The notes under the pieces were generated by a model. The model was not told the origin of the DNA. It did not search any database and saw only the letters and a program-made list of their open reading frames with translations. Source: Sphingobacteriales bacterium (lineage in GTDB: Bacteria; Bacteroidota; Bacteroidia; Chitinophagales; CAIOSU01). Taken from it: 64,000 nucleotides of DNA. Positions 28,722-41,613 of this stretch are shown here, piece by piece (the first letter of the stretch is position 1; each line of letters opens with the position of its first letter). The stretch lies in contig JAIXOI010000040.1 in the NCBI GenBank assembly GCA_027486795.1, forward strand, positions 10,972-74,971. Direction: 5' to 3'. The position numbers were made by a program, and so were the translations under genes.

Positions 28722-29537
28722 TTGGCAAACAACCATACCAGCCATACCAAATTGAACCTATTGGCCTACTTGGGCAAGGTGTACCACTACCGCAAAATGG
28801 TGCGCACCCTTGTGCGCCGCGACCTCAAGAAACAATATGCCCAAACGTTTCTGGGCGTGTTGTGGTCGGCTATACAGCCCGCCATTGGCTTGGTGGTGTT
28901 TACGTTGTTTTTTGTCTACATTTTTAAGATTGATACCAATGGTATTGCTTACCCTTTGGTGGCGCTAACGGGTATTGTGCCTTGGTTTTATTTTCTCAAT
29001 GTGGTTTCATCGGCAGGCAATTCGCTGACCGATAACCAAGACCTGATAAAGCGGCTATATTTCCCTCGATTGATATTCCCATTGGCTAAATCCATTACCG
29101 CTTTCGTCGATTTGGGCATTGCTTTTGTACTTTATACCCTGTTGGCGGTATTTTACGGTCAATTGCCCGGAAAAGCCATCCTACTTTTACCCGTCTTTTT
29201 GGGTATGTTGGTATTGTTGGCGCTTACGCTAGGTATTTGGTTGGCAGCGCTCACTATCCGTTTCAGAGACTTGCAAAACGTGGTGCCCTACCTGCTCAAT
29301 TTAGGTATATGGGTTACGCCGGTGTTTTACCCTGTAAGTGTTGTGCCGCAACCAATACAGCCTTATTTGCATTGGAACCCGATGGCCGGTATTATTGAAG
29401 GTTTTAGGTACAGTTTATTGGGCACCGGCAATTGGGATATGGCCTACCTCTACCCCTGGCCGTTTGTTTTGATTGCTTTTGTGGGCGGCCTTTTGTATTT
29501 TAGAAGAACAGAAACGATAGTTTCAGACTACTTGTAG
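28722..29537 (+). CDS. ABC-2 type polysaccharide/O-antigen exporter permease (Wzm/KpsM/TagG-like)
   Basis: 271 aa with 6 TM segments. The N-terminus YRKMVRTLVRRDLKKQYAQTFLGVLWSAIQP is typical of ABC2_membrane exporters. Confidence 0.85.
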   Translation: MANNHTSHTKLNLLAYLGKVYHYRKMVRTLVRRDLKKQYAQTFLGVLWSAIQPAIGLVVFTLFFVYIFKIDTNGIAYPLVALTGIVPWFYFLNVVSSAGNSLTDNQDLIKRLYFPRLIFPLAKSITAFVDLGIAFVLYTLLAVFYGQLPGKAILLLPVFLGMLVLLALTLGIWLAALTIRFRDLQNVVPYLLNLGIWVTPVFYPVSVVPQPIQPYLHWNPMAGIIEGFRYSLLGTGNWDMAYLYPWPFVLIAFVGGLLYFRRTETIVSDYL

Positions 29538-29622
29538 TATGATAAAAATCATTGACAACGAGTGCAGTGTTGGCTATCATTACACCGTTAACCTTTTTCA
29601 TTCGCAAAATAAAGATTGATAT

Positions 29623-30594
29623 ATGGGCTTTTTAAGCAGACTTTTCGGCGGCGGTGCAGATACAGCCGTGAAAGAACCAGTAAAAGCAGCAGCACCTGCG
29701 CCAAAACCATTGCCTAAGCTAGGGCAAGATGCCAACAAGTTCCGTCAAATTTTCCGCGACCCAGCGCTTCAAAAGCAATTTGAAGAAGACGGGTATGTAA
29801 TTGTTCAATTTTTGGAGCCAGAGGAGATTCAAGCCCTGCTCGATTTTAAGAACGGTACTAGACCTGATAACCGCTTCAACACCAATGCCGAAGACGCTAC
29901 CTATCACTTTACGTTTTTGGACACTAACATACCTTATAAAAAGGAGGTATTCAATACCGTGATGCAGTTTTTTCAACCTGCTATTGATAAGTGGATGATT
30001 GATTACAAGCCGCTGATTGTAAACTTTGTATTGAAGGATGCAGGTTATGGCGAAGTGCCCGTGCACCAAAACTGGAACTTTGTGGATGAGGAGAAATTCC
30101 GTTCGTTCTCGGTTTGGGTGCCTTTGATGGATACCAATGCCGAAAACGGTACACTGCAAATCATTCCAGGTACGCATACACAAAACTTCCATTACGCCAT
30201 TCGCAGCCCATGGATTCCTTGGTATTTTAAGGATTTCTCTGATTTCGTTATCAAAGAATACCACCGCCCCTTGAATGTAAAAGCTGGCCAAGCCGTTATT
30301 TTTGATGATAGTTTGATTCACTACTCTAGCCCTAACAACAGTAAAGAGCAGCGTATTGTAATCCAAAACATCATTATCCCTGCTGAAACAGAAGCGGTGC
30401 ACTACTACGTAGACCCAGAGCGCCCACAAGTGCTGCAAACCATGGTAGTGGACAAGGATTTTTATTTGGACTACGATATGCGCGCTACGCCAACAGGCTT
30501 TAAGTCGGTTGCCGAAGAACCGTATGTCGACCGCACCGTTGACAAGGAGACCTTTATTGCTATGATTAAGGCCAAGGGCATCGATAAGAAGTAA
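29623..30594 (+). CDS. PhyH-like Fe(II)/2-oxoglutarate oxygenase family protein (variant H-x-N motif)
   Basis: HQNWNFVDE, SVWVPLMDTNAENGTLQIIPGTH and AVIFDDSLIHYSSPN......R motifs, paralogous to the three downstream domains. Confidence 0.7.
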   Translation: MGFLSRLFGGGADTAVKEPVKAAAPAPKPLPKLGQDANKFRQIFRDPALQKQFEEDGYVIVQFLEPEEIQALLDFKNGTRPDNRFNTNAEDATYHFTFLDTNIPYKKEVFNTVMQFFQPAIDKWMIDYKPLIVNFVLKDAGYGEVPVHQNWNFVDEEKFRSFSVWVPLMDTNAENGTLQIIPGTHTQNFHYAIRSPWIPWYFKDFSDFVIKEYHRPLNVKAGQAVIFDDSLIHYSSPNNSKEQRIVIQNIIIPAETEAVHYYVDPERPQVLQTMVVDKDFYLDYDMRATPTGFKSVAEEPYVDRTVDKETFIAMIKAKGIDKK

Positions 30595-30616
30595 ATGCTA
30601 AAGTAAAAAGCGACCA

Positions 30617-33169
30617 ATGAAAGTGGTGAACGATGTAGATGCGGTGGAACGCTATTATGACGAGTGGACCGGCCGTTATCTGGAGGTTTATGGCGACATG
30701 ATTCAAGCGTTCCGTAGTGCCGACGATAAGGACACCCTTGGTCGCATAGCCAATAGCATTGGCTTTAAACCCGGCGAGCATATATTGGATGCAGGCTGTG
30801 GTGTAGGCGGCCCAGCAAGGTTTTTTGCCCAAAACAACGGTGTAACCGTTGAGGGCGTTACCGTAAGCCAAGTGCAAGTAGATACCGCAAAGGAAAAAAA
30901 CCTTGCGGCTGGCTTAGACGATAAAATCAAAATTAAGAAAGCCGATTTCCATACCCTTACCGAGCACTTTAACCGCGAGCGGTTTGATAAGGTATTGTTT
31001 CTCGAATCGTTGGGCCATTCCAAAGAACCTGAGAAAGTATTGAAAGGTGCTTTTGATGTGCTGAAACCGGGTGGCTATGTGTATATCAAAGACTTTTACG
31101 CCAAAGAAAGCGATAACCCAGAATACCAAGCGTATATTGACAGGTTGGTAAACAACATCAATGTGGCATATAGCTACAATACGCTTGACCTAAATGTGGT
31201 GCTTAAAGCCATGCGCAGGGCGGGTTTTGAGGTGGAGTTTATTCGCCCGGTACCCATTGAGCATGATATTGAAGTAAGGGCCGATTTTGAATCGAAATTC
31301 GGTATTGACCTGTTCGAAGGGGGGTTGGATTTCCCTTATGCCGATTGGTTAGAAATAAAGTGCTGGAAACCTACTTATCGTTTCAAAAACCAAAAGCAAT
31401 TTGTAGATGAGAACCTACAGACTACTTATGATAAGCAGGGTTTTGTAACCACGCCATTGCTAAGCGCCGATGAGGTAAAACAATTATCTGATTGGTTTTA
31501 TGCCAACCAGCCCGATACGGGGGGCAACTTCCAGGCCACTATTGAGATACAAGATGCCGAGTACCGCCGCAAAGTAAACGCGATGGTAAAGGAGGTAATT
31601 GGCAGCAAAATAAAGAAACTATTGCCGGGCTACCGTGCCATAGTGGGTGGGTATGTAATAAAACCACCTGCTGAAGGCGGTATCAAAAAAATGCATAGCG
31701 ACTGGCAATATACCGACGAAACCGTGCAGCCGAGCTTCTCGGTTTGGGTGCCGCTGTTGCCTGTAAACAAAGAGAATGGCGCCATGATGTTCATACCTGG
31801 CAGCCATAAACATGCAGCCTTATTGCGCGGGCAACATACCGTAAACGCCTACGACATTATTGAGCCGATATTGAAAGCCGATAGGGTAGTAACCATTGAG
31901 CAACCACCTGGCGAAGCGGTGATATTTGACCAGCGCATTTTGCATGGCTCGGGCGAGAACTTTACCACCGTGCCGCGCTTGGCCATGACCCTCACCATTG
32001 CCCCCGTGGATGCTGATTTGCTGCATTTTTATCGCGACCCTGTTACACAGGCGCACAACACCATGACCAAATATGTGGTGCCTGAGCATTTTTATCTCGA
32101 TTATGATTTCAACTTCCCACCCGATGAAAAATACAAGGTGGGTGAAGTAGTGGATAAGAATTTGGATTGGGTAGTGAGCAATCTCAAAACAGAGTATGCC
32201 AAAGGCGATGGGCCTTTGTTTGTAGAGAAAATGCGAGAGAAACCCATTTCTGCCAGACGGGTGATGATAGCTGAGGCAGATGAAAGGGCTATGGAAGAAG
32301 AGGGTTTCGTTATCAAACCTTTTCTCAGCACCGAAGAAATTACCTACATGCAAGGCTTGTGGGACCAAGAAACGGCAGGCCTCACCCAAAGCATGGTGGC
32401 CACAACCATGAGCACCAATAAGGCTTTCAGGGAGCATTTGCACGCCGAAATTTGCCGCATTTTTGCGCCAAAGCTTAATGCCATACTGAAGGATTACAAG
32501 CCATTGAGCGGCGCGTATATCATGAAACGCCCTAGCCCCGATAGTGCTTTGGTAACGCATTTCGATTGGATGTTTGTGGACGAGCGCCGCTATGCAAGCA
32601 TGCACGTGTGGGTGCCTTTGGTTGATGTAGATGCCACCAATGGAGCGTTCCAGATATTGCCGCGTAGCCACAATATGGTAAATGCTTGGCGCGGGCAGAA
32701 TACGTTGGATTCTATCTTCTTCAACAACAGAACCATTAAAGCTGGTGCCGCTCTGACGCTGAATATGAAGGCTGGCGAGGCATTGATTTACGACAACCGA
32801 TTAATTCATGGCACGCCACCAAACACTAGCCAGAATGATAGGCTAGCGGCGGGATTGGTTATGATACCTAATGAAGCAACGCCAATACACGTATATACCC
32901 CAGCTGAGAAAATGCATGATGAAGATGTGGAGGTATATGAAGTGGACGAACAGTTCTACTTCGACCACGACATTCGGGAGCGACCGGTAGGATATAAGTT
33001 CATTGAAAAGGTGCGCGATACGCGTCGCGGTGAAACGTTCCGTTTGTTGGAAGAGGCATTTTTGGAGCCAATCAAGAAAGTAGTTGAGCCTGTACACGAG
33101 ATTGCTGCACCAACAACCGAGGATAATGCCTCATTGCTTCAAAAGCTAAAAAGGACTGTTTTTAAGTAA
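30617..33169 (+). CDS. fusion protein: class I SAM-dependent methyltransferase + two PhyH-like oxygenase domains
   Basis: Methyltransferase: ILDAGCGVGGPARFF, VLFLESLGH, LKPGGYVYI (aa 1 to about 250). Oxygenase 1: H360-S-D362, SVWVPLLPVNKENGAMMFIPGSH, ILH443GSGEN. Oxygenase 2: H648-F-D650, HVWVPLVDVDATNGAFQILPRSH, LIH731GTPPN. Confidence 0.8.
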   Translation: MKVVNDVDAVERYYDEWTGRYLEVYGDMIQAFRSADDKDTLGRIANSIGFKPGEHILDAGCGVGGPARFFAQNNGVTVEGVTVSQVQVDTAKEKNLAAGLDDKIKIKKADFHTLTEHFNRERFDKVLFLESLGHSKEPEKVLKGAFDVLKPGGYVYIKDFYAKESDNPEYQAYIDRLVNNINVAYSYNTLDLNVVLKAMRRAGFEVEFIRPVPIEHDIEVRADFESKFGIDLFEGGLDFPYADWLEIKCWKPTYRFKNQKQFVDENLQTTYDKQGFVTTPLLSADEVKQLSDWFYANQPDTGGNFQATIEIQDAEYRRKVNAMVKEVIGSKIKKLLPGYRAIVGGYVIKPPAEGGIKKMHSDWQYTDETVQPSFSVWVPLLPVNKENGAMMFIPGSHKHAALLRGQHTVNAYDIIEPILKADRVVTIEQPPGEAVIFDQRILHGSGENFTTVPRLAMTLTIAPVDADLLHFYRDPVTQAHNTMTKYVVPEHFYLDYDFNFPPDEKYKVGEVVDKNLDWVVSNLKTEYAKGDGPLFVEKMREKPISARRVMIAEADERAMEEEGFVIKPFLSTEEITYMQGLWDQETAGLTQSMVATTMSTNKAFREHLHAEICRIFAPKLNAILKDYKPLSGAYIMKRPSPDSALVTHFDWMFVDERRYASMHVWVPLVDVDATNGAFQILPRSHNMVNAWRGQNTLDSIFFNNRTIKAGAALTLNMKAGEALIYDNRLIHGTPPNTSQNDRLAAGLVMIPNEATPIHVYTPAEKMHDEDVEVYEVDEQFYFDHDIRERPVGYKFIEKVRDTRRGETFRLLEEAFLEPIKKVVEPVHEIAAPTTEDNASLLQKLKRTVFK

Positions 33170-34026
33170 TGCGCACCATTTTTAAAAATAGCGCCCACCA
33201 AGAGCAATACAACCGCGATGGTTTTATTCGTTACCCTTTGCTATCAAGCCAAGAGATTACCGATTTGCTGACCGTTTACAAGGAGCTAAACTCAGGCTTA
33301 GAGGGTAATAAGTTTTATACCTCGCATACTAGTGGCGATGTGGCCTACAAAACCAAAGTAGACCAAGCTATTAAAGAAGTGCTGGTGCCTAAGTTGTGCG
33401 ATATTTTTGAGGATTACAAACCCGTGTTTGGCTTCTATTTGGTAAAATCGCAAGGCTCAGAGACCTTAGATTTGCACCTCGATTGGCAGTTTGTTGATGA
33501 GCGCCAGCATGCTGGGTTCAATATGTGGTGCCCATTGGTGGATGTGAATAAAGAAAACGGTGCCATTTTCGCCATCCCCGGCAGCCACAAGCATATTAAA
33601 ATATTGCGTGGCTGCAACACCCCTAACCCTATGTGGTATGTGGATGGAAAGGTAGATAAAAACCAAGTACAAACCCTTCCGCTTAAAGCGGGCGAGGCTT
33701 TGGTTTTCGATTTGCGCCTAGTGCATGGTGCCTGGCCCAACACCTTGCCACAGCAGCGCATTGCAGTGGGTATGGTTGCCATTCCGCAAGAGGCGGATAT
33801 ATTGCATTTTTGGACTGAAAAGGAAGAACGAGGGCACAAGGATATTGAAGTGTACCGTATGCAGCCCGAATACTACATGCTCAATCACAACGGCCAACGC
33901 CCCCCTGCCGAAAGCCTTATTGGGCATTGGGATGACACCTTACGCGAGCAAACCATTGCCGACCTAAAAAAAGCCTACACCCAAAAGCCTTCGTTTATCA
34001 AGCGGCTGCTTGGTGCTTTGGGGTAA
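33169..34026 (+). CDS. PhyH-like Fe(II)/2-oxoglutarate oxygenase family protein
   Basis: HLDWQFVDE, NMWCPLVDVNKENGAIFAIPGSH and LVFDLRLVHGAWPN....R motifs. The start overlaps the upstream stop (TAATG at 33167-33171). Confidence 0.75.
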   Translation: MRTIFKNSAHQEQYNRDGFIRYPLLSSQEITDLLTVYKELNSGLEGNKFYTSHTSGDVAYKTKVDQAIKEVLVPKLCDIFEDYKPVFGFYLVKSQGSETLDLHLDWQFVDERQHAGFNMWCPLVDVNKENGAIFAIPGSHKHIKILRGCNTPNPMWYVDGKVDKNQVQTLPLKAGEALVFDLRLVHGAWPNTLPQQRIAVGMVAIPQEADILHFWTEKEERGHKDIEVYRMQPEYYMLNHNGQRPPAESLIGHWDDTLREQTIADLKKAYTQKPSFIKRLLGALG

Positions 34027-35705: not shown

Positions 35706-36353
35706 TCATTTGATGTCAATGAAAAAGACAGTATCAATAAAGAAAAGATTTTCATTCCTTACAAGCACATTTTCATCATGCATATCTTCCAGTATTAGGC
35801 CAAGGTTTTGGCTATAATAGTCGTTCCTTTTGATGTTTTCAAAGCCATTTTTCTCTAAAAAGGTCTTAACATCACTAAGATCTGTAACTGCATCTGTAAT
35901 AATAAAAGGTTGTTCCAACACTGCAAGTAATTCGCCATCAGCCATTATGAAGGCAAGTAGTAAGTATCTAGTATCTAGAAATAATAGATTGTGTATGAGG
36001 ATACTATTAAGAAAAGCTAGCCAAGTAGAATAATAAATGGCATCGTTTAGCTTGATGACTGTATTTCTTGTAGTACTGAAATGTATTTTAGCTTCGCCCC
36101 CTTCTGTAAGAAAATTTTCATCCGACAACTCTTCTTTAAACCAAAGATTATTGTCTGTTGCAAAATCAATTAGGCAGTTTTTCTGTGCTTCTTTGATGAT
36201 TGATTCACCTTGGAAGCTTCTTGTAACTTTTGTATTTGTGCTAAAGCGCCCTGATAAGAAATTTCGGGCTGCTGTGAGATTATCTTCTCTCCCAAGGATG
36301 CTCTTTCCTCGAATGATAGTTTCAAGTTCTTCGTGCTTTTCATGGGTTATCAT
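35706..36353 (-). CDS. hypothetical protein with an atypical kinase-like C-terminal half (AT-rich gene)
   Basis: GGEAKIHF, IHNLLF and LILEDMHDENVLVRNENLFFIDTVF resemble the glycine loop, the catalytic D.H..N and a DxD-like metal site of small phage-type polyvalent kinase domains. This is a motif-level call only. Confidence 0.4.
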   Translation of the reverse strand: MITHEKHEELETIIRGKSILGREDNLTAARNFLSGRFSTNTKVTRSFQGESIIKEAQKNCLIDFATDNNLWFKEELSDENFLTEGGEAKIHFSTTRNTVIKLNDAIYYSTWLAFLNSILIHNLLFLDTRYLLLAFIMADGELLAVLEQPFIITDAVTDLSDVKTFLEKNGFENIKRNDYYSQNLGLILEDMHDENVLVRNENLFFIDTVFFIDIK

Positions 36354-36454: not shown

Positions 36455-38080
36455 CTATTTCCTCAACACACAATCCCCAATAACCAATACATCCATACCA
36501 CAACCATAGAACGCCGAAACGGCATCGATGGGGGAGTGGACGATGGGCTCGTTGTCGCGGTTGAAGCTGGTATTGAGCACTACGCCGTGGCCATTGAGCT
36601 TTTTGAAGTGCTGCAATAATTGGTAATAAAGGGGGTTTTGTCGTGTATTAACGGTCTGTATGCGGGCAGTGCCATCAACGTGCGTAATAGCAGGCAACTG
36701 CTTGGCTGCCGCGGGTTTCACGTTGTAAGTAATGGTCATATACGGGGCAATGGCTTGTGCACCCTCAAAGTATAGTGTTGAATCTTCCTCTAATACCGAT
36801 GGGCAAAATGGCCTAAACGACTCGCGGAACTTGATTTTAAGGTTTACCAACTCTTGCATATCCGCGCGGGTTGGGTCGGCGAGGATGCTGCGACAACCAA
36901 GGGCGCGGGGACCAAACTCATCCCTGCCCTGCACCCAGCCCACTACTTTGCCAGCGTGTATGGCTTCGGCTGCAATTAAGGCAGGGTCGGCAACGCGCTC
37001 GTAGGTGGCATGTAGTTGGTCCAGTATATGGCTTATTTCCTGGTTGCTGTATCCCCGGCCCCAATAAACATTATCGGTAGGCACTGGCTTTTGCCCTACT
37101 GCTGCTGAGGCCAACATAGCTGCACCTAACGAAATACCCGCATCGCTGCTGGCGGGTTGAATAAACAGGGCCTCCACTTCGGGCAGGTCCATGAGTTTTT
37201 GGTTGACCACACAATTGAGTGCCACGCCGCCCGCTAGGCACAACTTGCGGATGCCAGTCTGTGCTATGTAATGCTTTACGATATTGGTAATGGCTGCTTC
37301 CAGATGCCATTGTGCACTGGCGCCAATGTTCTTGAACCGTTCGTCCAACGCTTCGCCTTTGCGGCGGTTAGTGCCCAGTTTGTCCATCAACTTCTGATTG
37401 AAAAACATCTCCTGTTTGCTGGGTTGTGGTTGGCCGGGTTTTATTTCTACTAAGTAACTAGTATCCAGCGTATATTGGCCTTCATCGTGCAAGCCCAATA
37501 GCCAATCGAAATTATAGCTACCGCCATCGCCATAGCTCGATAGGCCCATCAGTTTGTACTCGTCGCTATCTTTCTTAAAGCCACAATATTGGGTTATCAA
37601 GCTGTAAAACAGTCCCAAGCTGTTGGGTCGCTCAAAGCGGTGCAATAGCTTCAGTCCATCGGCATTACCTATGCTTACTTGTGTGCAAACGCCATCGCCA
37701 GAGCCATCAATGGATATTACTAACGCCTCATCATATCCTGCCGCATAAAAGGCACTGGCACTGTGGCAATCGTGGTGGTGGTAGCGCTGTATAGTGGGCA
37801 CATGGCCAAAGGTGTTTTTGAAATACCCTGTAAGCACCTCTTGGTATTGATCGCCCCAAGTGCTGCCGTGGGTGGCTACTATGTCAATGTCTTGTATGGT
37901 AATTCCGCCAATGCTCAATACTTCCACAATAGCACGTTCAGGCAGTTGGTTGGGCGAGTTTTTTACCCGGTTAAGGCGCTCCTCTTCAATGGCGGCAATT
38001 ACTTCGCCGTCCTTCATCAGTACGGCAGAGATATCTTGATACCCCATGCGCACACCACCATTTATACCGAGTATGTACAT
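36455..38080 (-). CDS. carbamoyltransferase (NodU/CmcH family)
   Basis: The N-terminus YILGINGG...QDISAVL..DGE...AIEEERLNR.K and the length fit the family. I place the start at Met25, 2 nt after the upstream stop. Confidence 0.85.
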   Translation of the reverse strand: MYILGINGGVRMGYQDISAVLMKDGEVIAAIEEERLNRVKNSPNQLPERAIVEVLSIGGITIQDIDIVATHGSTWGDQYQEVLTGYFKNTFGHVPTIQRYHHHDCHSASAFYAAGYDEALVISIDGSGDGVCTQVSIGNADGLKLLHRFERPNSLGLFYSLITQYCGFKKDSDEYKLMGLSSYGDGGSYNFDWLLGLHDEGQYTLDTSYLVEIKPGQPQPSKQEMFFNQKLMDKLGTNRRKGEALDERFKNIGASAQWHLEAAITNIVKHYIAQTGIRKLCLAGGVALNCVVNQKLMDLPEVEALFIQPASSDAGISLGAAMLASAAVGQKPVPTDNVYWGRGYSNQEISHILDQLHATYERVADPALIAAEAIHAGKVVGWVQGRDEFGPRALGCRSILADPTRADMQELVNLKIKFRESFRPFCPSVLEEDSTLYFEGAQAIAPYMTITYNVKPAAAKQLPAITHVDGTARIQTVNTRQNPLYYQLLQHFKKLNGHGVVLNTSFNRDNEPIVHSPIDAVSAFYGCGMDVLVIGDCVLRK

Positions 38081-38082
38081 GC

Positions 38083-39303
38083 TTAGCGCCCGTGTTTGTA
38101 GTACTTCAAATAAGCAACTTTTGGCAATAGGTTCATTTGCGACATAAGCCATACCATTGGCCTAGCTAGCTTTATTAGTGGGTAGCTGGTTGGTAGGTCG
38201 TGAAAGTCTTTAGCAGGCAATGCCAAGTAGTTATCAAATTCTTCTTGGGTAATGCCCAAACGCTTAATGCAAAGCTGTATCACCTTTGGGTCTTCAATGG
38301 CGTATATACCATGTGCTCTCGCCAAAGCATCTTCTCGCTTCAATTCACCATTGCGCACCAGTGCCGAGTCGCTGTTCATGTTCATATCAATATTGAACTT
38401 CACCCGGTGCACATATTTAATCAAGCTGTGGTATAGGTCGTCAAAGTAATGCGCGCCAGGGTATACCCATTCTAAGTTTTCGGTGATTATTTTCTCTGCC
38501 GTTGGGCGGTGATAATCGCTGTAATACATTGGGGTAAACGTGCGGATGCCACGCTGAACGGTGTAATAGAACATCTCCTTTACGCCCATATTAAAGCCTG
38601 GGTCGTTGGGGGTCCAAGGGCGCAGGGGCAGGTCGCTGTGCATTTTATGCACTGCCCGCAGGTAGTCGCCATCAAAGTAAGCCCACGAAAGCGGTTTCAC
38701 GCCTTCGGTGCGGAACGATTGCCCAATCAATATATACTTTACGTTTTCTTTAGCAGCTACCCCAAAAAGCGATGACGCAATACCAATGTCAGTACCCAAA
38801 TTCAAATCGGGGCACGATGCTTTCAGGAAATCTATTTTCAGTTGTTTGCCCTCGCGCCAATCGCTGGTAATGGTGCGTAGTTCCACGCCCAGTATGCGGC
38901 AGGCGTTTATCATGTTCTCGCCTGCAACAGGGTTATCAAAGCCATCGTTAAAGTGCACGGCAATGGCACGCAGGCCCCATTCTTTTACCACTTTCCATAG
39001 CAAGTAAATGCTATCTCTGCCGCCGCTTATGCCTACTACTACATCAAACTTGCGGTTCTTGCCTTTTTCCTTTATCTCTGCAAATATTTTATCTAATATG
39101 GCCTTGCCTTTTTCCCCGTTAGGGAACATACCATCTAGTTTGTCCCACAGGTGGCAAAAGTTGCATTCGCCATTATGATCGAAAGAAATACCAGGCACGG
39201 TGCTGTCTTGCACACAGCGAGTGCAAATTTGGTAGGTAAGTTCGGGGTGCAACTTACCATTTACTACTACTCCCTTTTCACCTATTTTAAATGAGTTCGT
39301 CAA
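38083..39303 (-). CDS. N-acetyl sugar amidotransferase (PP-loop ATP pyrophosphatase; WbpG/PseA/WbuX type)
   Basis: N-terminal Cys motif CTRCV.D...PGISFD..GECNFC followed by the PP-loop GISGGRDS. Confidence 0.8.
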   Translation of the reverse strand: MTNSFKIGEKGVVVNGKLHPELTYQICTRCVQDSTVPGISFDHNGECNFCHLWDKLDGMFPNGEKGKAILDKIFAEIKEKGKNRKFDVVVGISGGRDSIYLLWKVVKEWGLRAIAVHFNDGFDNPVAGENMINACRILGVELRTITSDWREGKQLKIDFLKASCPDLNLGTDIGIASSLFGVAAKENVKYILIGQSFRTEGVKPLSWAYFDGDYLRAVHKMHSDLPLRPWTPNDPGFNMGVKEMFYYTVQRGIRTFTPMYYSDYHRPTAEKIITENLEWVYPGAHYFDDLYHSLIKYVHRVKFNIDMNMNSDSALVRNGELKREDALARAHGIYAIEDPKVIQLCIKRLGITQEEFDNYLALPAKDFHDLPTSYPLIKLARPMVWLMSQMNLLPKVAYLKYYKHGR

Positions 39304-40126
39304 ACTGGTAGCCTTTGTTTTTAAGCATTTCGCCTATTTGGGTTCCTTTTTCAGGGCGCTCAGGCACTTCAAACTCAATAGTACGCAATTCGCCGGCAAA
39401 TTCATTAAACTGCCCTTTGGTTAATACGCCATCTTTGCTCACTACCAAACTGCAGCCCACCATTTTTTTACCCTCGTAAGGGCCGCCCACAATATAGCCC
39501 ACGCTGGTGGTGCTTACCACCACTAGGTTGTGTAAGCGTGCCAATATCGAGAAAGGCTTTTCCCACTTATCGCGGTAGGGGTCGTCTTCTTCGGTAATAT
39601 GGTAGTCTACCGTCCATGAGCTGGGCGACAGGATGATTTGTGCACCCATTCGGGCTAGCGTATGCCCAATGTGCAAGGAGTCGCTATAGTTGTCGGCGCA
39701 TATGTTGAGGCCTATTTTACCAAATGGCGTATCAATTACGTTCAGCGTTTGCCCCACCTGGTAGTATGGGTGCTCCACCACCAGTAGGTTTATCTTTTGC
39801 GCTTTGCCGATAATGGTGCCTTGGTTGTCAATAAGCAATGAGGTGTTGTAGTTCACATCGCCTACCTTTTCGGTAAGGCCTACACAAATGTAAATGTTGT
39901 GTTCTTTAGCAGCGTTGGTAAACACTTCGCTAAACGGCCCCGGTATGGGTTCGCTTTCTTTCAGCGAGCTGGGGTGGGTCCAAGCAAAATCAATGGTTTC
40001 GGGCAGAATGATAATGTCGCAACCTTCCTTGGCGGCCTTGATTATCATCTTTTGCGCGCGCTCAAAATTTCTCCAGGGCTCGCCGCCTTCTACCAATAAC
40101 TGCCCCAGACCTATCTTTACCTTCAT
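39287..40126 (-). CDS. carbon-nitrogen hydrolase (nitrilase superfamily) protein
   Basis: E-K-C triad context (ILPET; K in QKINL; GLNICADN). I place the start at MKVKIGLGQ. The 3' end overlaps the amidotransferase start by 17 nt. Confidence 0.8.
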   Translation of the reverse strand: MKVKIGLGQLLVEGGEPWRNFERAQKMIIKAAKEGCDIIILPETIDFAWTHPSSLKESEPIPGPFSEVFTNAAKEHNIYICVGLTEKVGDVNYNTSLLIDNQGTIIGKAQKINLLVVEHPYYQVGQTLNVIDTPFGKIGLNICADNYSDSLHIGHTLARMGAQIILSPSSWTVDYHITEEDDPYRDKWEKPFSILARLHNLVVVSTTSVGYIVGGPYEGKKMVGCSLVVSKDGVLTKGQFNEFAGELRTIEFEVPERPEKGTQIGEMLKNKGYQFDELI

Positions 40127-40365: not shown

Positions 40366-41613
40366 ATGACCCGTAAGGAAAAAATACTGTTATCTATTTT
40401 AGCCATCATCAAGTTCGTGCACATCATGGATTTTATGATTATGATGCCCCTAGGGCCGCAGCTAATGAAGGCTTTTAACATTAGCCCTGCACAGTTTGGT
40501 GCCATCGTATCTAGCTACGGGTTTAGCGCGGGCATATTTGGTTTTGTTGGTGCATTTTTCATCGATAAGTTTGATCGGAAAGTAGCCTTGGTTTATCTGT
40601 TTGCTGGCTTTACTATTGGTACCCTATCGTGTGCTTTTGCCCCTACCCATCATTGGTTGATTGCAGCACGTATATTTACAGGGGCTTTTGGTGGTATATT
40701 AGGCGCATTGGTTTTGTCCATCGTTGCCGACCAATTTCCCGCCGAGCGCCGTTCATCAGCCATGGGCGTTATTATGGGCGCTTTTTCGGCAGCATCGGTG
40801 TTGGGGGTGCCGTTTGGTCTTTATATGGCTTCCATTTACAATTGGCAGGCACCTTTTATGTTGCTGGGTGGTATTAGTATTGCCATTTTTATAGCCATAC
40901 TATTTGTGGTTCCTAGCCTTCGGGCACATTTAGATCAAGTTAACCGACGCAGCCCTGTTGAGTTTTTAGTAAATATCTACAATAAACGCAGCCAACAATT
41001 GGCGCTGTTGTTAATGGTGCTGTTAATGTTCGGGCAGTTTAGTATAGTGCCGTACATAGCCCCATATATGGTGAGCAATGTGGGCTTTACCGAGCTGCAA
41101 CTTACCTACATATACTTGTTGGGCGGAGCGGTTACGCTTATCACTTCTCCGTTAATTGGCCGGTGGGCCGACAATGTGGGCAATGTGAAGATGTTTACCA
41201 TTATGGGCTTACTTGCATTAATTCCCATTGCTTTAATAACCAATTTGCCGCAAGTGCCTATTTATGTGGCTTTGATACCCACCACCATGTTCTTCATTTT
41301 TATTGGTGGCCGCATGATACCGGCCCTTACCATAATTACCTCAACCGCTATGCCGCAAAACCGTGGTGGATTTATGACCATAGTAACCAGCCTGCAAAAC
41401 ATAGCTTCTGCAGCAGCGGCGTTTTTGGCGGGGCTAATAATCGTGAAAAACGACTTGGGCCAATTGGAGCAATACGCCTACGTGGGCGGTGTGGCTATTA
41501 CTGCATCTATAGCCTGTATTGTATTGATAAGATATATAGCGCCAGCAACGCTACAACCAGCACCCATCGAAACGCCTATTCAAACAGCACCACCTGCCGA
41601 TATTCGTGCATAA
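40366..41613 (+). CDS. MFS transporter
   Basis: 12 predicted TM segments and a D-R-x-G-R-like loop (IDKFDRKV). Confidence 0.85.
   Translation: MTRKEKILLSILAIIKFVHIMDFMIMMPLGPQLMKAFNISPAQFGAIVSSYGFSAGIFGFVGAFFIDKFDRKVALVYLFAGFTIGTLSCAFAPTHHWLIAARIFTGAFGGILGALVLSIVADQFPAERRSSAMGVIMGAFSAASVLGVPFGLYMASIYNWQAPFMLLGGISIAIFIAILFVVPSLRAHLDQVNRRSPVEFLVNIYNKRSQQLALLLMVLLMFGQFSIVPYIAPYMVSNVGFTELQLTYIYLLGGAVTLITSPLIGRWADNVGNVKMFTIMGLLALIPIALITNLPQVPIYVALIPTTMFFIFIGGRMIPALTIITSTAMPQNRGGFMTIVTSLQNIASAAAAFLAGLIIVKNDLGQLEQYAYVGGVAITASIACIVLIRYIAPATLQPAPIETPIQTAPPADIRA

Follow-up and report, generated by a model that had tools for sequence, protein, structure and literature searches.

A three-gene cassette on the minus strand of a 64,000-nucleotide stretch of contig JAIXOI010000040.1 (the window), from a Chitinophagales genome (Sphingobacteriales bacterium, G000), pairs a carbon-nitrogen hydrolase (CN-hydrolase) of the nitrilase superfamily with a PP-loop amidotransferase (AT) of the N-acetyl sugar amidotransferase (NASAT) family, and a carbamoyltransferase (CarbT) gene follows. 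Amidotransferases are textbook modular enzymes, in which a glutaminase is attached to a synthetase through an ammonia tunnel, and NAD synthetase is, to our knowledge, the only enzyme to which a glutaminase module of the nitrilase type has been linked so far. The AT described here is without its usual HisH/HisF-like suppliers, its gene overlaps that of the hydrolase, and the pairing is kept in dozens of relatives, all of which points to the hydrolase as the most likely source of ammonia. The reading we favour, with rather more confidence than doubt, is that the hydrolase would be the ammonia-generating subunit of a two-subunit amidotransferase together with the AT, functionally equivalent to WbuY/WbuZ. 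That a CN-hydrolase replaces the HisH-type subunit had been suggested in an earlier reading of the window (the original prediction), and comparative genomics supports the suggestion through the co-occurrence of the two genes, the grouping of the ATs in one clade, the exclusion of HisH/HisF and the want of a WbuY/WbuZ copy.

We searched a sample of 401 Bacteroidota species genomes with the AT and with the hydrolase. WbuX-family matches were found in 40 of these genomes, and close relatives of the AT (58-100% identity) in only four (G000, G151, G079 and G335), the next best match being 40% identical. Close relatives of the hydrolase, at 66% identity or above, occur in exactly the same four genomes, with a next best match of 36%. 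The co-occurrence check proposed alongside the original prediction thus returned identical sets for the close AT and the close hydrolase, 4 of the 401 genomes, and 0 of the other 397. In one of the four (G335, which is 100% complete) the hydrolase-AT pair stands alone beside a valyl-tRNA synthetase gene, and CarbT is absent from the whole genome.

We then considered which genes accompany the AT, searching the 19.5-kb regions around 20 AT matches with the window proteins and with the host genome's own HisH and HisF. All seven of the close AT loci first examined have a hydrolase orthologue (65-70% identical) within 5 kb, and in none of the seven was HisH or HisF found. The hydrolase lies directly upstream of the AT in all close loci but one, where it is 4 kb away. 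Around distant Bacteroidota ATs (27-40% identity), HisH and/or HisF are adjacent in 13 of 17 loci and the hydrolase is present in none. The known partnering of sugar PP-loop enzymes with HisH/HisF, on which the original prediction had drawn as background, accordingly holds for these distant loci, and the wider family also contains HisF-AT fusions. In a maximum-likelihood tree, nine hydrolase-linked ATs and the AT of a further genome (G401) form one clade (support of 100 in the Shimodaira-Hasegawa-like approximate likelihood ratio test, SH-aLRT; stem length 0.72), nested among branches linked to HisH/HisF. The confinement of the hydrolase-linked ATs to one long-stemmed clade fits a single replacement of the partner.

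The pairing can also be viewed from the side of the hydrolase. Scanning genome contigs with the single hydrolase protein gave 5 close relatives only, and a search with aligned orthologues brought up 80 metagenome loci (61-98% identity). All relatives encountered under a name belong to the Bacteroidota. The AT is present in 63 of the 80, downstream and on the same strand in 58, and HisH or HisF in none; in 10 of the 17 loci that lack the AT, the sequence breaks off less than 600 bp past the downstream end of the hydrolase. Collapsing the hydrolases at 85% identity left 50 evaluable lineages, in 45 of which the AT lies in the locus, directly downstream of the hydrolase in 39. Over more than 90 hydrolase-clade loci, HisH/HisF were found in none. 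Among the 33 loci with full flanks, the AT occurs in 28, a Gfo/Idh/MocA oxidoreductase in 17, a DegT aminotransferase in 13 and CarbT in 13, which makes the AT the most tightly linked neighbour of the hydrolase.

Two other genes that follow the hydrolase were weighed as partners and rejected. An AIR-synthase-family gene, found after the hydrolase in three metagenome loci, was considered as an alternative amidine-forming partner using PurL-like chemistry; it was set aside because a 67% orthologue lies elsewhere in the host genome, it resembles thiamine-phosphate kinase, and a single organism accounts for all three loci. A 395-residue gene after the hydrolase in locus L117, considered as a second AT, encodes an SGNH/GDSL protein.

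HisH/HisF-like partners might be encoded away from the cassette, a case that the original prediction had itself raised, and the host assembly (3.9 Mb, 97.6% complete) was checked for them; it contains housekeeping hisH and hisF only. The cassette AT is the single WbuX-family gene of this genome (190.4 bits in a genome-wide TIGR03573 search), and its locus has no HisH/HisF-like partner. The one hisH lies within hisB-hisH-hisA. The one hisF adjoins hisIE and scores above the hisF equivalog cut-off but below the WbuZ and AglZ/HisF2 cut-offs. Since each gene is single and stands in a histidine-gene setting, and since hisF falls below the WbuZ and AglZ cut-offs, we conclude that there is no dedicated WbuY/WbuZ pair; no dedicated copy was found in the 97.6% complete assembly.

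The identities of the proteins originally proposed (a CN-hydrolase, a WbuX-type AT with CxxC...CxxC and SGGRDS motifs, and a carbamoyltransferase) were borne out by Pfam and NCBIfam matches and by their motifs. The hydrolase matches Pfam PF00795 (CN_hydrolase) with 116.2 bits against a cut-off of 23.2. Alignment with the Pyrococcus nitrilase 3ivz gives its catalytic residues as E43, K111, E118 and C143, all of them invariant among 10 orthologues; in a 28-sequence alignment E43, K111 and C143 are invariant and E118 nearly so. Its AlphaFold2 (AF2) model, with a predicted local distance difference test score (pLDDT) of 89.5, has the nitrilase fold, and Foldseek TM-scores to nitrilase-superfamily structures are 0.75-0.78. 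In Foldseek it comes closest to N-carbamoylputrescine amidohydrolase, Nit2 and a Pyrococcus amidase/nitrilase (E about 1e-21), with beta-ureidopropionase and N-carbamoyl-D-amino-acid amidohydrolase among further near structures. A second, unrelated CN-hydrolase of 260 residues is encoded elsewhere in the host genome, where it adjoins a class I/II aminotransferase (L066:13866-15778); it is dissimilar to the cassette hydrolase in tblastn, and with the aminotransferase beside it may form an omega-amidase/transaminase pair.

The AT carries the cysteine motifs C27xxC30...C47xxC50 and the PP-loop S93-G-G-R-D-S98; G91, S93, G94, G95, D97 and S98 are invariant across 47 sequences. It matches the WbuX model TIGR03573 over its full length with 190.1 bits, slightly below the curated cut-off of 203.2. 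Its four cysteines fit the N-terminal tetracysteine zinc motif as described for the NASAT family (PMC10607449). The AF2 model of the AT (pLDDT 92.8) has as its top Foldseek match the Legionella LpNASAT structure 8WEX (E 2.6e-14, TM-score 0.59-0.63), followed by TtuA and then by ammonia-dependent NAD synthetases, matches that agree with the description of the family in the same paper. Searched by sequence, the PDB gave no match to the AT, and 8WEX was recovered by the fold search only.

Within this fold the hydrolase-linked clade has its own residues. At six positions (119, 122, 282, 286, 288 and 308) one residue is common to all 17 HisH/HisF-type sequences and another is found in nearly all members of the clade: N119, F122, P282, Y286, D288 and N308 in the clade, against D, W, Y, H, E and R, respectively. 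More broadly, the near-invariant residues of the clade at 119-125, 282-300 and 308-312 differ from those of HisH/HisF-type NASATs, and judging from the alignment they are possible signatures of partner docking or of substrate specificity. Given these changes in conserved motifs the amidated group need not be the classical N-acetyl group, and the substrate of the clade may present something else.

Reading the sequence across the gene junctions bore out the tight coupling claimed for the three minus-strand genes, in their coordinates, the overlap of 17 nt between hydrolase and AT and the 2-nt spacing between AT and CarbT (Table 1). The mechanically called hydrolase reading frame extends to 40210, and we prefer the shorter reading given in the table. 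There is no in-frame ATG ahead of the Cys motif of the AT; from the TTG at 39303, its N-terminus matches in length and residues that of the ATG-started orthologue in locus L041, which makes the overlap credible. In a related locus (L007) hydrolase and AT overlap by 8 nt, and in L010, L041 and L042 their tblastn matches are 5 to 77 nt apart; the corresponding gap has a median of 39 nt in those 58 metagenome loci where a same-strand AT follows the hydrolase. A scan for sigma-70 promoters and terminators, which is uninformative for Bacteroidota, found fewer sites than in shuffled sequence.

Table 1. The cassette genes and their junctions, in window coordinates
Feature	Position	Strand	Remarks
CN-hydrolase gene	39287..40126	-	279 aa, ATG start; proposed ammonia-generating subunit
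AT gene (NASAT/WbuX-type PP-loop amidotransferase)	38083..39303	-	406 aa with TTG start
CarbT gene (TobZ/NodU/CmcH-type carbamoyltransferase)	36455..38080	-	541 aa; begins MYILGINGG, ends at 36455
Hydrolase/AT overlap, 17 nt	39287..39303	-	hydrolase stop TAA (39289-39287) against AT TTG start; sequence read
AT/CarbT junction	38080..38085	-	AT stop TAA (38085-38083), 2 bases, CarbT ATG at 38080; sequence read

We propose that the nitrilase-fold protein would hydrolyse an amide donor, most likely glutamine, at Cys143 and so free ammonia, presumably within a complex of the two proteins. The PP-loop AT would adenylate the carbonyl oxygen of an amino-sugar substituent using ATP, and the ammonia would then displace AMP to give an amidine or an amide. 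The hydrolase would in this way fill the role that the HisH/HisF-like WbuY/WbuZ have in other members of the family, following the same logic as glutamine-dependent NAD synthetase by way of a separate recruitment. CarbT would most likely O-carbamoylate the same sugar, which is probably made by the products of DegT, Gfo/Idh/MocA, glycosyltransferase family 2 (GT2) and B12-radical-SAM (S-adenosylmethionine) genes on another contig of the host genome, C28.

Several observations weigh against this reading. The original prediction had spoken of a split NadE-like logic, and the part of it that stands is the placing of a nitrilase-fold amidase beside a PP-loop enzyme; the hydrolase itself, however, is not a relative of the NadE domain. 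It scores 44.4 bits against the NCBIfam NAD+ synthase model NF010588 (cut-off 479), a NadE chain is absent among its listed sequence and fold matches, and its nearest sequences and folds are those of nitrilases/amidases and of N-carbamoyl amidases. By these matches it was recruited independently from the nitrilase superfamily and does not derive from the glutaminase domain of NadE. Linkage is also incomplete: five lineages (about 10%) have the hydrolase and no AT within 6 kb, in G401 a distance of 160 kb on one contig separates the AT orthologue from the hydrolase, and in locus L081 the hydrolase is convergent to the AT.

A fusion of the two proteins, for which the original prediction had suggested a search, was not found either. 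The search covered the 150 best AT-family representatives at 50% identity, with a hydrolase profile and phmmer run on all 150 and a Pfam scan on ten; none of the 150, 51 of which are at least 480 residues long, contains a hydrolase match. Nor did a hydrolase-AT fusion appear among the longer relatives of either protein, those of the AT yielding a glycosyltransferase fusion only and those of the hydrolase no fusion at all. What the family does contain are fusions with other partners: phmmer found HisF-AT fusions in 7 of the 150 representatives (P0139, P0161, P0189, P0192, P0230, P0247 and P0264), and there are GT1/GT4-AT and GT2-AT fusions of about 640-800 residues (P0131, P0142, P0155, P0163 and P0202).

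These points bear on the main rival explanation, in which the AT uses free ammonia as single-domain NadE does and the hydrolase works separately on an intermediate, be it sugar or lipid, perhaps as a de-N-acylase or an N-carbamoyl amidase. We think this unlikely, while giving it more weight than any other alternative. The absence of a fusion and the separation of the two genes in some loci would suit it, as would the presence of CarbT in the same operon together with the identity of the best structural matches of the hydrolase (N-carbamoylputrescine amidohydrolase, beta-ureidopropionase and N-carbamoyl-D-amino-acid amidohydrolase). However, CarbT is missing from about half of the loci of the pair and from the entire G335 genome, so that there would often be no carbamoyl group to serve as a target. 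Moreover, no sugar-making gene comes near the AT in tightness of linkage to the hydrolase, which occurs exactly where HisH/HisF vanish.

CarbT belongs to the two-domain carbamoyltransferases (Pfam Carbam_trans_N, 151 bits; Carbam_trans_C, 230 bits), and its closest solved structures are the O-carbamoyltransferases TobZ (E 2.4e-84), NovN and GdmN. It scores 137 against the NodU equivalog cut-off of 1000 and so is not NodU itself. A CarbT orthologue directly follows the AT in 21 of 42 evaluable metagenome loci, accompanying 19 of the 20 ATs that are at least 63% identical to the window AT and 3 of the 22 at 53-60%. Being tied to one AT subclade and absent from G335, CarbT is an accessory of that subclade and not a core component. 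The carbamoyltransferase originally counted as part of the operon is therefore such a part here, 2 nt after the AT, but accompanies one subclade only and about half of the loci. On its other side, between the CarbT gene and wzt, the window has an AT-rich Kinase-PolyVal reading frame (35706-36353, minus strand; Pfam 191 bits). At the corresponding place in L068 (13707-14597), whose cassette proteins are 98-99% identical, there is an unrelated 296-residue reading frame, then a 66-nt duplicate of the 3' end of the CarbT gene. With different cargo in near-identical relatives, the CarbT-wzt junction looks like an insertion hot spot.

For the CarbT-linked subclade, to which the cassette of the window belongs, a guanidino route is a further reading, which we consider improbable. 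CarbT would N-carbamoylate the amine that Gfo/DegT put in place, forming a ureido sugar, and the AT, with ammonia from the hydrolase, would turn this into a guanidino group by adenylation and replacement of the oxygen by ammonia, a chemistry like that of argininosuccinate synthetase. The 2-nt distance between AT stop and CarbT start, the position of CarbT directly after the AT in half of the 42 loci and its concentration among the ATs of at least 63% identity fit such a route; so do the recurrence of Gfo and DegT, with no WbpD-like N-acetyltransferase seen among the annotated genes around L041, L066 and L007, and the replacement in the AT clade of the six motif positions invariant in classical NASATs. 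Against it, the closest characterised carbamoyltransferases are all O-carbamoyltransferases, there are AT orthologues at 53-60% identity that do without any CarbT, and we know of no guanidino sugar of this kind in a glycan. If true, the route would be a new, arginine-independent synthesis of guanidinium, and would decorate a surface glycan or lipid with a cationic group in a new way. Finally, that the housekeeping HisH/HisF moonlight as ammonia supplier, with the hydrolase an unrelated passenger of a mobile glycan island, is highly improbable: the host genome does have one hisH and one hisF, and the glycan loci are mosaic, but AT and hydrolase co-occur in 4/4 and 0/397 genomes, the pair is present in 45 of the 50 lineages, stop/start overlaps recur (in the window and L007), and the hydrolase is 61-72% identical across most related loci.

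The ammonia-supplying hydrolase remains our preferred reading, and the neighbouring genes bear on the sugar it would serve. DegT aminotransferase, Gfo/Idh/MocA oxidoreductase, a small GT2 and B12-binding radical-SAM enzymes recur as neighbours of the cassette, and these genes are contiguous with it in a 93%-identical relative (L069). In the host genome they lie on contig C28 at about 271-278 kb. The surrounding region (C28:264000-283000, L066) contains two pairs of Gfo/Idh/MocA and small GT2 genes, a DegT gene and three radical-SAM genes, two of them B12-binding, as well as two large proteins of 593 and 705 residues with no Pfam match. In L069 some of these genes adjoin the hydrolase-AT-CarbT cassette without a break, and L066 would be a second locus of the same pathway as the cassette. 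A PMT/ArnT-like membrane glycosyltransferase, a DUF6798 membrane protein or an SGNH protein is also encoded in some loci, which, as no more than a lead, hints at an Arn-like route via a polyprenyl-phosphate sugar; a relation between the large membrane protein of L066 and the DUF6798 protein of L117 was not detected.

In the lineage of the window and in G151 the cassette adjoins a Wzm/Wzt exporter operon with PhyH-like oxygenases, and a glycan context for the cassette is likely. In G151, a member of another family with an AT of 72% identity, the Wzm-like and PhyH-like genes (L041:15598-19503) lie a few kb downstream of the cassette, the counterpart in the window being at 28722-34026. The link with an oxygenase-rich ABC (ATP-binding cassette) exporter operon is therefore not confined to the lineage of the window. 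On the far side, divergent from the hydrolase gene, the window has a major facilitator superfamily (MFS) transporter gene (40366-41613, plus strand), for which the myxochelin exporter MxcK scores best in NCBIfam (309 bits, below the cut-off). Only L067 and L068, two relatives at 98% identity, were seen to conserve this gene, and it could hint at a small-molecule product.

The nearest parallel to the proposed enzyme is the two-subunit NAD synthetase of Thermus thermophilus, whose PP-loop synthetase TTC1538 and stand-alone nitrilase-like glutaminase TTC1539 co-purify and use glutamine (PMC3376133). Both there and in the cassette, a nitrilase-fold Cys-Glu-Lys amidase is encoded beside an ammonia-needing PP-loop enzyme in one operon. 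Unlike that system and the fused NadE of Mycobacterium tuberculosis and eukaryotes, the cassette has as its synthetase a NASAT with a zinc ribbon instead of NadE, its acceptor is presumably a sugar substituent rather than deamido-NAD, and its hydrolase is no relative of the NadE domain; no fused form of the pair, comparable to NadE of M. tuberculosis and eukaryotes, was found. With the WbuX/WbpG/PseA/LfnA NASATs (8WEX, PMC10607449) the cassette AT shares its fold, PP-loop and tetracysteine zinc motif, and its neighbours include the same Gfo/Idh/MocA, DegT and glycosyltransferase genes. Where those enzymes are partnered by WbuY/WbuZ, however, this AT is partnered by a CN-hydrolase and is often followed by CarbT, and it falls slightly short of the TIGR03573 cut-off in a separate clade with many conserved positions replaced. 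CarbT likewise has the Carbam_trans_N and Carbam_trans_C architecture of TobZ, NodU, CmcH, NovN and GdmN but is coupled to an amidotransferase, an arrangement of which we found no description. The view in the original prediction that the hydrolase-NASAT pairing is uncharacterised agrees with the open-access literature, in which we found no paper describing it.

The modular amidotransferase is itself known; what would be new is the swapped ammonia module on a modular sugar amidotransferase. If our reading is true, the nitrilase-type module has been enlisted twice and independently, the second time for a sugar amidotransferase with relatives that rely on HisH/HisF, and the family offers a natural experiment in partner swapping. 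It would also give a functional assignment to the widespread genes annotated as 'carbon-nitrogen hydrolase family' in Bacteroidota glycan loci, and an improved annotation rule for acetamidino-type sugar pathways that have no WbuY/WbuZ. The pathway probably yields a sugar that bears a positive charge and in some cases a carbamoyl group; in common environmental bacteria, such a sugar could influence the charge of the cell surface, recognition by phages and resistance to cationic peptides.

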